DNA from: Rhodothermales bacterium
Lineage (GTDB): Bacteria; Bacteroidota; Rhodothermia; Rhodothermales; JAHQVL01
Assembly: GCA_034439735.1 (NCBI GenBank)
Contig: JAWXAX010000302.1
Span: 40,338 to 104,337 of the forward strand
Length of the DNA: 64,000 nucleotides
Direction of reading: 5' to 3'
Part shown: piece after piece, positions 12,308 through 63,791 of the stretch
Position numbering within the stretch: the first letter of the stretch is position 1
Layout of the letters: each line of letters begins with the position of its first letter
Program-made: the position numbers and the translations under genes
The notes under the pieces: model-generated
Seen by the model: only the letters and a program-made list of their open reading frames with translations
Told to the model about the DNA's origin: nothing
Database searches by the model: none

Positions 12308-12402
12308 GGTCCGCCTCGTTTGCTTGGGAAAGCGATTAAAAGTCAAAAATTGGACATTACAGACGATGATTGATCAGGTAACTGCCCAATCATCGTAATT
12401 TC

Positions 12403-12445
12403 CACTTTCCACTTTTCACTTTTCACTTTTCACTTTTCACTTTTT
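12403..12445. repeat. Tandem heptamer CACTTTT x6 between the two PspC genes
   Basis: CACTTTC then CACTTTT x5 read directly (AAAAGTG on the minus/sense strand). Begins 6 nt after the stop of the 12451-13083 gene. Confidence 0.9.
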
Positions 12446-29130: not shown

Positions 29131-29250
29131 GGTAGTTGCAGGTTGGCAAGTTGGCATGTTGCAGGTTACGACCGATCGGAAACCTATCTACCTGCAACCC
29201 GCCAACCCGCCAACCTGCAACCTGCCAACCTGCAACCTGCCAACCATTCC
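29131..29250 (+). repeat. GCAGGTT/AACCTGC word hairpin, copy 2
   Basis: Starts right after the porD-like TGA: GGTAGTTGCAGGTTGGCAAGTTGGCATGTTGCAGGTTA. Spacer, then CCTGCAACCCGCCAACCCGCCAACCTGCAACCTGCCAACCTGCAACCTGCCAACC. Ends 3 nt before the convergent tRNA-Leu. Confidence 0.8.
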
Positions 29251-31640: not shown

Positions 31641-31690
31641 CGATAGCGTTTGAACGATAGCGTTTGAACGATAGCTTTTGAACTATCTTA
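31641..31690. repeat. 14-bp tandem repeat CGATAGCGTTTGAA x3.5 between the S46 paralogs
   Basis: CGATAGCGTTTGAA CGATAGCGTTTGAA CGATAGCTTTTGAA CTATCTTA read directly. Ends 4 nt before ATG 31695. Confidence 0.9.
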
Positions 31691-33959: not shown

Positions 33960-34391
33960 CTACCTCTGCCTTTCCCACTCCTCGAATTTCTTGATTTCCG
34001 GCCTGAGAGCCTGGTAGAGGAGCGCGATGACCGTTGCGTCATCCAGATAACCGATGCCGGGCAGGAAATCGACGATCAGGTCCATGGGGCTGATGAAATA
34101 CAGCAGGCCGGCCGTGATGAGCACCAGCGGAGTCTTGGAGAAGCTGGTGTATTCCCCACGCAACCACCGATAGAGGAGACGGGCGAAGGCGCCGACTTCG
34201 GTGCGGAAGCGCGGGAGAAGCGCCGGCGTGTGGCCCATCTTGTCGACCACCTTGCGGAGCAGGTTCCATAACCTCACTCGCCGGCCGATCAGGCCATGCG
34301 CCTTTCCGATGCTTCGCCGCAACAGGGGTTTAAAAACCTTGAAGAGAAGCGCCGGCGCGAGTCGGCGGGATCCGGCGGAGCGATGATTCAT
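33960..34391 (-). CDS. DUF1232 (YkvA-like) membrane protein
   Basis: LLYFISPMDLIVDFLPGIGYLDDATVIALL is the DUF1232 core motif. Confidence 0.75.
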   Translation of the reverse strand: MNHRSAGSRRLAPALLFKVFKPLLRRSIGKAHGLIGRRVRLWNLLRKVVDKMGHTPALLPRFRTEVGAFARLLYRWLRGEYTSFSKTPLVLITAGLLYFISPMDLIVDFLPGIGYLDDATVIALLYQALRPEIKKFEEWERQR

Positions 34392-34498
34392 GGGGGCCCT
34401 GGGAGGTAAGCTTGCAGATCAGCCATAGAATAGCGATTCTGCGGCAAAAATCACAGCCCGGCGTCTTTCTTCAGCCCCCGGCCCTTGCTTCTGAGGGG

Positions 34499-34678
34499 CA
34501 GACACTGTTTCACACGCTGCGGCCGACACTGCGGCAGACACTGCGGAAGACACTGTTTCACACACTGCGGCAGACACTGCGGCAGACACTGCGGCAGACA
34601 CTGCGGCAGACACTGCGGCAGACACTGCGGTAGACACTGTTTCACACACTGCGGCAGACACTGCGGCAGAAACGGTGG
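34499..34678. repeat. 12-bp-period tandem array (15 phased units) of CAGACACTGCGG with three CACTGTTTCACAC variants
   Basis: Read directly: 9 short units plus 3 double-length units CAGACACTGTTTCACAC(G/A)CTGCGG. Unit junctions create the 9-bp palindrome CTGCGGCAG every 12 bp. All six frames are open across it. Confidence 0.9.
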
Positions 34679-34889
34679 ACCGACGCGGCGTTTCCGGTAA
34701 TGGGGAGACGTCGGGACGTACACGATCGAGGTGACTCGGGAAGGCGCGAAGGCGCGCGAAACGCTCGTGATTGAGGCCGCCGTCCGGCGTTGAGAAAAAA
34801 ACGTGTCAGTGTCGTGCAGAAGCGCTATTTTCGCCCTATCCACCAAACACGCCAGACGCGCGACGCGGTACATGCAAGGAGAAAAAGAT

Positions 34890-35546
34890 ATGGCGCCGAT
34901 CCGGGTGGTCCTCGCGGACGACCACCCGCCGCTCCGCGCCGGCATCCGGATGCGTCTCGAGCAGGAGCGAGACATCACCGTCATCGCCGAGGCCGACAAC
35001 GGCCGCGACGCGTTGCGGCTGGTACGCGATCTCAAACCTCATCTGCTGGTGCTGGACATGGAGATGCCCGACATGACGGGGTTGGATGTCGCTCGACAGT
35101 TGCGAGAGTCGGACGATACGATCCGCATACTCATCCTCAGCGCCCACGAAAACGACGACTATCTCGAGCAGCTCTTCGAGAGCGGCGCGGCGTCGGGTTA
35201 TCTCACCAAACAGGAATCTCTCGAGACGATTGTGGCCGCCGTTCGCGGCGTGGCGCGTGGTGAGGAGGGCTGGCTGAGCCGCGAGGTGGCGGCGGCCATG
35301 ATGAAGCAGCGCCGGGGCGGATCGCACAAGGCGGACCCTGCGATGCAGGAGTTAAGCCGGCGTGAGATCGAAGTCCTCAAGATGGTCGCCCGCGGTTTCA
35401 ACAACATCCAGATCGGCGATGAGCTGTTCATCGCGGAAAGTACCGTCAAAAAACACGTCAGCAACATCTACACAAAGCTCGAATTGGGCTCGCGCGCCGA
35501 AGCGGCGGCGTGGGCCTGGCGGCAGGGTCTGGTCGAGAAAGACTGA
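34890..35546 (+). CDS. NarL/FixJ-family response regulator (receiver + LuxR-type HTH)
   Basis: ATG 34890 preceded by AGGAGAAAAAG. IRVVLADDHPPLR, HLLVLDMEMPDMTG, and HTH LSRREIEVLKMVARGFNNIQIGDELFIAESTVKKHVSNIYTKL. No histidine kinase adjacent. Confidence 0.9.
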   Translation: MAPIRVVLADDHPPLRAGIRMRLEQERDITVIAEADNGRDALRLVRDLKPHLLVLDMEMPDMTGLDVARQLRESDDTIRILILSAHENDDYLEQLFESGAASGYLTKQESLETIVAAVRGVARGEEGWLSREVAAAMMKQRRGGSHKADPAMQELSRREIEVLKMVARGFNNIQIGDELFIAESTVKKHVSNIYTKLELGSRAEAAAWAWRQGLVEKD

Positions 35547-35718
35547 TCCAGAGTACGAATCATTTCGGCACAGTGTTTGACAAAGGATTTTCAGAAATCG
35601 AAACTCTGTGGTCACGCTGCGCATGGACCCTTACGTGCACGGATGACGCATGGAACGCCGTAAACGGCGCCCCTGACCATTCGCTTTAGGTCTCGCGGGC
35701 GCATCGCTCTGAAAGGCC

Positions 35719-36732
35719 TTGTTGGATAACGTTCACCTCGTATCGCTTGTCGTGCTCCTTGCGGTTTGTGCGATGGGGTGCGACAGCGCGCTGATGCGGG
35801 AGGTCGCCTACCACGAACGTGTCGGTAACCTGGAGGAAGCCCGTACGGCCGCCGAGCGCGCCGCCCAGTCGGATCCTGCGAATAGTGAAGCGCACTTCTT
35901 ACTTGGCCGCACCTGGTTGGCGCAAGGAGCGTACCCGGAAGCCCACGCCGCCTTCGAACGCGCTAACACCCGCACGGCCCGGTATGCGGACCAGATCGCC
36001 TTTTTGCTTGAATCCGCCTATCGAACCGCGATGGCGGAGGGGGCAACGGCCTATGGGATGGCCCGTTTCGCGGACGCCGCCGCCCACTTCGCCGCCGCTA
36101 CCCGCGTCGATACCGTCGCCCTGGATGCGTATCGCGCGCTGGGCCACGCCTCGGTCCAGGCCGGCGATCGGACCTCGGCCATTGCCGCCTACCGCACCGC
36201 CAGCCCCCTCGCCCCGGCCGACGTCGAACTGTGGAATAACCTCGCCGAACTGACGACCCTTGAAGCCGATTACGAGGCCGCGCTCGTCTACTCGCGCCAG
36301 GTGCTCCAGCTGGATCCAGCCTTTCGGCCCGGTCTGCGCCGGCTGGCCTACGTCGAAGAAAAGCTGGGCCATGACGACGAGGCCGAGGCGCACTACCGCC
36401 AGCTGGTCGACGGCGGCCACACCCAGGCCGACGCCCGCAATTTTGCCTTCTTGCTATACAACCGTCAGAACTACGCCGAAGCGCTGCCACATCTCGAGAT
36501 CCTGGCGGACCACGGGCAGCCCGACTGGGACGTGCTCAAGGTGTTGTGCGAGAGTTATCTGGCTGTTGAAGACTTCGCACGGGCAATCGATATAGGCATC
36601 CTGCTGCACGATCGCCGGCCCGAAGACCGCGACGTGGTGAGTAATCTGATCCTGGCGTACGAAAAGGTGGGCGACAACAAGCACGTGGTGCTGTACCGCG
36701 AGCGTCTCGCGCGCATGGAGGACGAATTATGA
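35719..36732 (+). CDS. TPR-repeat lipoprotein (first gene of the ten-gene operon)
   Basis: TTG start per track. LLAVCAMGCDS lipobox-like signal and multiple TPR-like A/Y/L repeats. ATGA overlap with the next gene. Confidence 0.7.
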   Translation: MLDNVHLVSLVVLLAVCAMGCDSALMREVAYHERVGNLEEARTAAERAAQSDPANSEAHFLLGRTWLAQGAYPEAHAAFERANTRTARYADQIAFLLESAYRTAMAEGATAYGMARFADAAAHFAAATRVDTVALDAYRALGHASVQAGDRTSAIAAYRTASPLAPADVELWNNLAELTTLEADYEAALVYSRQVLQLDPAFRPGLRRLAYVEEKLGHDDEAEAHYRQLVDGGHTQADARNFAFLLYNRQNYAEALPHLEILADHGQPDWDVLKVLCESYLAVEDFARAIDIGILLHDRRPEDRDVVSNLILAYEKVGDNKHVVLYRERLARMEDEL

Positions 36733-62256: not shown

Positions 62257-62432
62257 GAGAGGTTGAGGGTTGGCAGGTTACAGGTTGCAGGTTTGCAGGT
62301 TTGCAGGTTTGCAGGTTTGCAGGTTGCAGGTTTGCAGGTTGGCAGGTTACAGGTTGGTTTTATCGTCAGGGCAAGGGCAGCGCCTTCATCTTGAGAAACC
62401 TGCCAACTTGTAACCTGCCAACCTGCAACCTA
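62257..62432 (-). repeat. GCAGGTT/AACCTGC word hairpin, copy 3 (MFP-RND spacer), with a tandem 7/8-mer run
   Basis: Fills the whole 173-nt spacer. Sense strand: TAG GTTGCAGGTTGGCAGGTTACAAGTTGGCAGGTTT, then ~40-nt spacer, then AACCAACCTGTAACCTGCCAACCTGCAAACCTGCAACCTGCAAACCTGCAAACCTGCAAACCTGCAAACCTGCAACCTGTAACCTGCCAACC, ending a few nt before the RND ATG. Confidence 0.85.
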
Positions 62433-63589: not shown

Positions 63590-63791
63590 GTAGAGACGCA
63601 ATACATTGCGTCTCCATCGCGTCGCCGCCATCGCGTCGCCGCCTCACGTCGCCGCCTCACGTCGCCGCATCATGTCGCCGCATCGCGTCGCCCCATCGCG
63701 TCGCCGCATCATGTCGCCGCATCATGTCGCCCCATCGCGTCGGCCCATCGCCCCGGCCGTCCATTGGAGACGCAATGTATTGCGTCTCTAC
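63590..63791. repeat. Composite element: 27-bp perfect inverted repeats (each a near-palindrome) flanking ~11 tandem 13/14-bp units
   Basis: Left GTAGAGACGCAATACATTGCGTCTCCA (63590-63616). Right TGGAGACGCAATGTATTGCGTCTCTAC (63765-63791) is its exact reverse complement. Core is (C)ATCGCGTCGCCGC / CTCACGTCGCCGC / ATCATGTCGCCGC units. The right repeat contains the stop codon of the TonB-dependent receptor gene. Confidence 0.85.

Follow-up and report, generated by a model that had tools for sequence, protein, structure and literature searches.

A 12-bp tandem array in the apparent scar of a lost sortilin/BNR gene: a probable young minisatellite beside a NarL/LuxR-type regulator

Intergenic tandem repeats that lie beside a regulatory gene are easily taken for its binding sites. 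In the 64-kb stretch of Rhodothermales DNA analysed here (the window), we observe such an array, made of 15 in-register 12-mers with the consensus CAGACACTGCGG at 34499-34678 (no strand assigned), in the 499-bp spacer between a DUF1232/YkvA gene and a response regulator gene. Using orthologous loci, we find that the array is best explained as a young minisatellite, specific to this lineage, that expanded within the scar of a gene deletion, and we give this explanation a probability of about 0.7. Judging from the sequence comparison, the array appears to be filler in a gene-loss scar and unique to the lineage of the window. We infer that it grew by slippage and that it is neutral. The array is probably neutral and possibly length-variable, and its effect is most likely none, or merely an altered spacing of two promoters.

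As a bacterial intergenic minisatellite the array is of a known kind, with an unusually well defined birthplace. Its direct importance is small. It demonstrates, however, that repeats beside a regulator need not serve as its operator, a reading that is tempting but mistaken in this case, and that orthologous loci can both date a repeat and locate its birthplace, in this case the gap of a lost sortilin/BNR gene.

Structure and surroundings of the array

The array is flanked by the DUF1232 (YkvA-family) gene on the minus strand (33960-34391, Pfam E=8.9e-13) and by a NarL/LuxR-type response regulator with REC and GerE domains on the plus strand (34890-35546, Pfam). The regulator is followed by genes for TPR, FG-GAP/CHU_C, PorP-like and MotA/ExbB-Ig (Pfam) proteins and by two ExbD proteins. 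TRF called the array at 34497-34670 with a period of 12, 14.5 copies and a score of 236, the top-scoring array in the 64-kb window. Reading the units in register from 34499, we found that 7 of the 15 are exact copies of CAGACACTGCGG, 3 carry one mismatch and 1 carries two mismatches, and unit 15 (CAGAAACGGTGG) is degenerate. Across the whole window, unit matches with ≤2 mismatches number 18 compared with a shuffle mean of 7, and 11 of the 18 are inside the array. The periodicity of the array is far beyond chance, and the 12-mer is present at this single locus, with no other locus within the 64 kb. The GC content around the array is ~0.62.

The array has a higher-order structure. Three double units of the form NAGACACTGTTT CACACNCTGCGG start at 34499, 34547 and 34631: D1 (CAGACACTGTTT CACACGCTGCGG; 34499-34522, no strand assigned), D2 (34547-34570) and D3 (34631-34654). 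It can be read directly from the sequence that removing the 12 nt that separate the two ACACTG words of a double unit leaves a single unit. The layout of the array is D-S-S / D-S-S-S-S-S / D-S-S', which yields three blocks; each opens with a 24-bp double unit, and the number of single units after it is 2, 5 and 2, respectively. Five consecutive exact units form a homogeneous core (34571-34630, no strand assigned), and the longest perfectly periodic run extends over 69 nt (34562-34630), whereas the edges of the array are degenerate.

This anatomy agrees in large part with the original prediction, which had been made from the sequence alone. The flanking DUF1232 gene on the minus strand and the regulator start at 34890 were borne out by Pfam, the 15 phased 12-mers at 34499-34678 by TRF and the in-register reading, and the double units at all three positions by the exact word CACTGTTTCACAC located 4 nt into each (34503, 34551 and 34635). 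The proposed palindrome every 12 bp was correct only in part. The word CTGCGGCAG is present at 8 of the 14 unit junctions (n=8 in the array, with ~1 expected per window); it is, however, a 4+1+4 dyad (CTGC G GCAG) and no full palindrome, and the series is broken before each double unit. The units also contain a second dyad, 4+3+4 (GCAG ACA CTGC), and on the minus strand of the array GTGTC recurs every 12 bp. As a single strand the array folds modestly better than shuffled sequences (z = -3.6 for the DNA plus strand and -2.2 for the RNA minus strand), which the alternation of GCAG and CTGC words leads one to expect and which is no evidence of function. A search of Rfam returned no family at the gathering threshold, and at E≤1 only a 13-bit match attributable to chance.

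The lost sortilin/BNR gene

The evidence for a deleted gene comes from six orthologous regulator loci (L024, L025, L055, L056, L057 and L059; the ortholog P0247 was left out). The closest genome match is MAG JTS-AC300 (L024), with a regulator 97% identical overall to that of the window; the regulator of L057 is 96% identical. In L024, a sortilin/VPS10-BNR gene of >910 aa is located directly upstream of the regulator and there is no tandem repeat. An intact BNR gene adjoins the regulator upstream in L024, L055 and L056. The intact BNR orthologs carry the PF15902 Sortilin-Vps10 and PF02012 BNR domains. The gene order is DUF4835 - S46 - S46 - AP_endonuc_2 - cytochrome c - BNR - regulator - TPR - FG-GAP in L055, a 544-kb contig, and BNR - regulator - TPR in L056. 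In the window this ~2.9-kb sortilin/BNR gene is missing.

Both edges of the gap can be located. On the right, a blastn match between L024 2671-4174 and window 34674-36167 (81%) starts at 34674, and homology therefore begins at the right edge of the array. The first 120 bp of this match on the plus strand (34674-34793) are a relic of the last ~40 codons of the sortilin/VPS10-BNR gene, 73% identical to L024. The relic is interrupted by an in-frame TAA (34698-34700), its original TGA (34791-34793) is still present, and its translation ..GTYTIEVTREGAKARETLVIEAAVRR corresponds to ..GSYTVEVARDGVSARETLVVEAPGRR in L024. It is homologous to an intact syntenic ortholog, truncated and stop-interrupted, in line with a pseudogene relic. 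On the left, the segment at 34392-34498 (no strand assigned) is the ancestral divergent spacer between DUF1232 and BNR, homologous to L057 and L058 up to ~34490. The DUF1232 upstream spacer of L058 can be aligned with the window as far as this point; beyond it, L058 has the start of a signal-peptide ORF (MKTFVRRCLWLALV...ADAQRR), similar to the N-terminal end of the BNR protein that is intact in L055. The left-flank homology stops about at the expected BNR ATG (~34490), and the array fills exactly the stretch between the point where BNR used to start and the 3′ relic. L058 together with the intact-BNR loci indicates that the ancestor of the subclade therefore had an S46 peptidase gene facing DUF1232, DUF1232 divergent from sortilin/BNR, and the regulator following sortilin/BNR in the same direction, ahead of the TPR / FG-GAP / T9SS-like operon.

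The array itself is absent from all six orthologous loci, and in L024, L025, L055 and L059 the region upstream of the regulator has no tandem repeat. Two further losses, in L057 and in L059/L060, were independent and left different relics of ~200 bp and no array. Counting the window, the BNR gene was lost at least three times independently in the subclade (L057, L059/L060 and the window) and was kept in L024, L055, L056 and L058; each loss left a different short relic.

We propose that a deletion removed nearly all of the sortilin/BNR ORF, beginning at or close to the start codon and sparing the final ~40 codons. Replication slippage or unequal recombination would then have amplified a 12/24-bp word located at the deletion junction and thereby generated the higher-order blocks and the homogenised core. 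Smith-Waterman comparisons on both strands against the BNR 5′ ends and relics of L055, L057, L058 and L059 returned no significant source of the unit (best p 0.024 of 8 tests, uncorrected). In the intact genes, the region just 5′ of the relic is too variable to align. Counted against a young minisatellite is that the array is identical in every assembly, although these all represent one clone. The neutrality suggested above rests on the lack of conservation, and a recently born element can be functional.

Promoter-like blocks and alternative explanations

Conserved promoter-like blocks are found on both sides of the array and outside it. The block upstream of the regulator (34795-34831, plus strand), just past the BNR stop, reads A7-CGTGTCnGTGTCG-N11-GCTATTTT, with an A-tract at 34795-34801, GTGTCA GTGTCG at 34803-34814 and TATTTT at 34826-34831. 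The spacing from GTGTCA to TATTTT is 17 nt, and the core motifs CGTGTC, TGTC and CTATTTT are conserved in the window, L024, L055, L056, L057 and L059. We consider this block the putative promoter of the regulator. It is mirrored upstream of DUF1232 by a promoter-like block on the minus strand (GAATCGCTATTCT; 34427-34439) that is conserved in L057 and L058. The word GAAnCGnTATTnT has only two exact matches in the 64 kb, at 34427-34439 (minus) and 34819-34831 (plus), both conserved in close relatives, which suggests that DUF1232 and the regulator have one promoter type or are co-regulated. A simple sigma-70 and terminator scan of the spacer returned nothing, and GTGTCnGTGTCG is not enriched in the window. 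The array lies between the two blocks and overlaps neither: it starts ~65 bp from the DUF1232 block and ends ~125 bp upstream of the regulator -35-like element, at ~107 bp from the DUF1232 start and ~210 bp from the regulator start. A mobile element was considered and rejected, as there are no terminal inverted repeats around the array; the sole inverted pair (34429-34442 / 34816-34829) is the promoter-like motif common to both flanking genes.

This position raises the question of length-dependent tuning. If the array were a VNTR or contingency-type locus, adding or removing 12-bp units would alter the distance or helical phase of the divergent promoters, or the leader of a transcript that reads through from the orphaned BNR promoter, and would in this way modulate expression. 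The former BNR promoter region (34392-34498) appears to be retained and to point into the array, into which it may be transcribing, and the perfectly periodic core is a good slippage substrate located between two promoter-like blocks. Additionally, eight short-read contigs break within the array; de Bruijn assemblers, however, break at any such repeat, and no length variant was observed among the crossing contigs, which come from two samples of one clone. Units of 12 bp slip far less often than units of 1-7 bp. The array is also intergenic and upstream of both blocks, outside any ORF, the -35/-10 spacers and the promoter-to-start intervals in which a contingency tract would act. The slippage-prone contingency locus suggested originally holds for its slippage anatomy (homogeneous core, degenerate edges and higher-order structure) but not for its placement, and we regard tuning as unlikely. 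In H. influenzae hmw1A, transcript levels drop as the repeat number grows (PMC8262952). By analogy, a P2-repeat-P1 arrangement as in hmw is possible, and an hmw1A-like tuning role is possible but unsupported.

The array had also been predicted to be an iteron-like operator for the adjacent LuxR-HTH regulator. This is contradicted by the comparative evidence. The recognition helix AESTVKKHVSNIYTKL is identical in all seven regulators (window, L024, L025, L055, L056, L057 and L059), yet the six other loci have neither the array nor its unit, leaving the operator reading unsupported. No 12-mer with ≤1 mismatch is found near any orthologous regulator promoter, and the only one in the relatives is inverted, inside the BNR signal-peptide codons of L055. 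The sites are therefore not co-conserved with regulators that share the recognition helix, and the array would seem to be unneeded by a regulator whose orthologs do without it.

It could still be argued that the array is a newly evolved multi-site platform to which the NarL/LuxR-type regulator, or some other dimeric DNA-binding protein, binds, and that it works as an enhancer of auto-regulation or as a sink that titrates the protein. The repeated 4+1+4 and 4+3+4 dyads and the closeness of the regulator gene are consistent with this, as is the minus-strand GTGTC, which is also part of the conserved GTGTCnGTGTCG of the regulator promoter-like block. We estimate this last overlap as a weak coincidence, with a few-percent chance per pentamer and several pentamers available. 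The absence of the array from all six loci despite the identical helix argues against such a platform, as do its distances of ~65 bp from the DUF1232 block and ~125 bp from the regulator -35-like element. With a period of 12 bp on a 10.5-bp helix, successive sites would rotate by ~51 degrees. NarL sites are 7-2-7 and the lux box is 20 bp, so that the 4-bp half-sites of the array are far shorter. Finally, the related words noted originally downstream of the regulator (35571-35612) have 3 of 13 mismatches to the unit and are at chance level, with 6 found and 8.9 expected. Altogether we consider a newly evolved binding array very improbable.

An equally slim chance is given to the array as a functional element that was just born. 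Here the orphaned BNR promoter and the GCAG/CTGC dyads would have been co-opted in one of two roles: a multi-site platform bound by the regulator or by a nucleoid protein, or a structured leader through which expression of the regulator and the downstream T9SS-like operon is retuned. If this were true, the array would be de novo cis-regulatory DNA from a deletion scar.

Upstream of the TPR / FG-GAP / T9SS-like operon there is another conserved block, TTTTCGGCACAGTGTTTGACA (35560-35612, plus strand), with TTGACA at 35577-35582; its 5′ half is conserved in 5 of the 6 orthologous loci compared. The related words noted originally fall within this block. Within it, an imperfect 10-bp inverted repeat (CACAGTGTTT ... 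AAACTCTGTG; 35570-35611) brackets a promoter-like TTGACA-17-GAAACT. The 5′ arm of the repeat is conserved in 5 of the 6 loci, and only the window, L056 and L057 have a recognisable 3′ arm. As a candidate operator of the regulator, we favour this inverted repeat over the array.

An assembly artefact, that is, a mis-joined or collapsed repeat, can be discounted almost entirely. By exact-protein look-ups, the same locus was found in several metagenome assemblies that are 99.98-100% identical to the window. This holds for all available assemblies, which therefore represent one clonal population, and our comparison of unit number covers this one clone. Eight shorter contigs stop inside the array, and the ENA contig L006 is a chimera in which the array is fused through a common 33-mer to the unrelated conjugation-gene locus L019. 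The array-crossing contigs from two samples (L001/L007 and L008) nevertheless have identical 15 units, with unique variant units on both sides, and partial contigs agree with them. The perfect run is just 69 nt long, which we judge can be spanned by 150-nt reads, if such reads were used. As a practical warning, most short-read assemblies of this organism break at the array, which has also produced at least one chimeric contig.

The sample sequences gave two additional observations. In L008 (JGI sample 3300015360), the regulator has a 2-bp deletion (TC) corresponding to window 35162-35163 that splits it into a 129-aa REC ORF and a 104-aa GerE ORF, which is either a real inactivating variant in the population or an assembly error. 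When the metagenome collection was scanned for pairs of adjacent units, 11 matches were obtained, mostly coding coincidences in unrelated organisms, and there was no match to the array in viral contigs. Locus L019 (Ga0163144_10044153), a contig with F-like conjugation genes (TraF, TraU and a T2SSE ATPase) from a sample that also holds the population of the window, has a 6-unit array of the same 12-mer family at 2703-2770; in translation, this array makes up the hydrophobic core of a TraF-like signal peptide (..AASAAVSAAVSAAASAAAL..). L019 was rejected as a related locus, as its flanks are not shared with the window; it accounts for the chimeric L006.

No frame of the unit contains a stop codon, and all six frames are therefore open across the array; four of them yield ORFs of 71-194 aa. 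These were predicted to be spurious repeat peptides, and the four array-spanning translations tested have no significant Pfam match. That the array is coding, for example as a minus-strand 80-aa ORF (34419-34661, (SAAV)n) for a small hydrophobic peptide or an N-terminal extension of DUF1232, is already close to refuted: the frame is in phase with the DUF1232 ATG and the related short array of L019 codes in the same frame, but one TGA intervenes (34419-34421, visible in L012 and located where the assemblies are 99.98-100% identical), the DUF1232 proteins of orthologous loci lack an extension, the upstream region is conserved as DNA and not as an ORF, and relatives have no array.

Known repeat systems and other arrays in the window

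The closest known class is the bacterial intergenic minisatellite or VNTR, as used for MLVA typing. Like these, the array has head-to-tail units of ≥10 bp in a non-coding spacer, a homogenised core, degenerate edges and no evident conserved partner protein, and is found in one lineage only, its presence differing between the window and the six related loci. Unlike a typical VNTR, its birthplace is pinned to a specific gene-loss scar; moreover, a VNTR is defined by copy-number polymorphism, whereas the array is known from one clone. The (ATCTTTC)n repeats between P2 and P1 of H. influenzae hmw1A and hmw2A are, like the array, longer than 1-4-nt SSRs and lie upstream in the promoter region, and their unit number grades transcription (PMC8262952). 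They have 7-bp rather than 12-bp units, and are conserved at the locus among strains and demonstrably variable. The array, in contrast, is upstream of both putative core promoters, with neither conservation nor variability seen in its one clone.

Plasmid iterons and type Ib/II partition centromeres (R1 parC, with 11-bp repeats) are also phased direct repeats of about a helical turn, on which, as on the array, a dimeric protein might in principle assemble in many copies. Iterons, however, have units of 17-22 bp, and the flanks of the array are conserved chromosomal synteny. Unlike iterons and centromeres, the array is not co-conserved with any neighbouring gene. Replication-origin iterons, which adjoin the gene of the Rep initiator that binds them and usually come with an AT-rich segment or DnaA boxes, were rejected given the 12-bp unit, the DUF1232 and response regulator neighbours, the GC of ~0.62 and the chromosomal synteny. 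A partition centromere (parC/parS-type), which would lie beside a parA/parM-parR/parB operon, was rejected since the ten flanking proteins scanned have no Rep, ParR, ParB or ParA/ParM domain. The TAACTGA heptamer arrays of Beggiatoaceae, Cyanobacteria and some Bacteroidetes (PMC4679880) resemble the situation here in that short intergenic arrays accumulate. They consist of one word that recurs at a very large number of loci, in most cases immediately before a start codon (PMC4679880), whereas the 12-mer has one locus in 64 kb.

The window also holds arrays of 7-, 8-, 13- and 14-mers. The lineage seems generally prone to gaining intergenic arrays, and we consider this the more interesting lead: several such arrays were gained, and a relative is without them at the two syntenic spacers compared. 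The spacer between DUF4835 and tRNA-Leu is ~15 nt in L055, compared with ~120 nt of inverted 7/8-mer arrays in the window. In the second case, the 14-mer CGATAGCGTTTGAA (31641-31683, 3.1 copies) fills most of the 72-nt S46-S46 spacer, and the L055 spacer has no 14-mer.

The inverted 7/8-mer arrays form a dispersed family with members at 867-969, 29134-29245 and 62260-62431, with (A)GGTTGCA / GGTTGGCA on one arm and the complement on the other. They form long repeat-built hairpins, and two of the three (29134-29245 and 62260-62431) adjoin gene ends; they could be terminators or a small mobile element. A further array, TTTTCAC (6.6 copies), is located in an intergenic spacer at 12399-12444. At 63615-63751, the 13-mer CATCGCGTCGCCG is repeated 10.5 times (TRF score 167). 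A perfect 22-nt hairpin flanks this array on both sides in opposite orientations, as GAGACGCAATACATTGCGTCTC on one side (63593-63614) and as the complement on the other (63767-63788).
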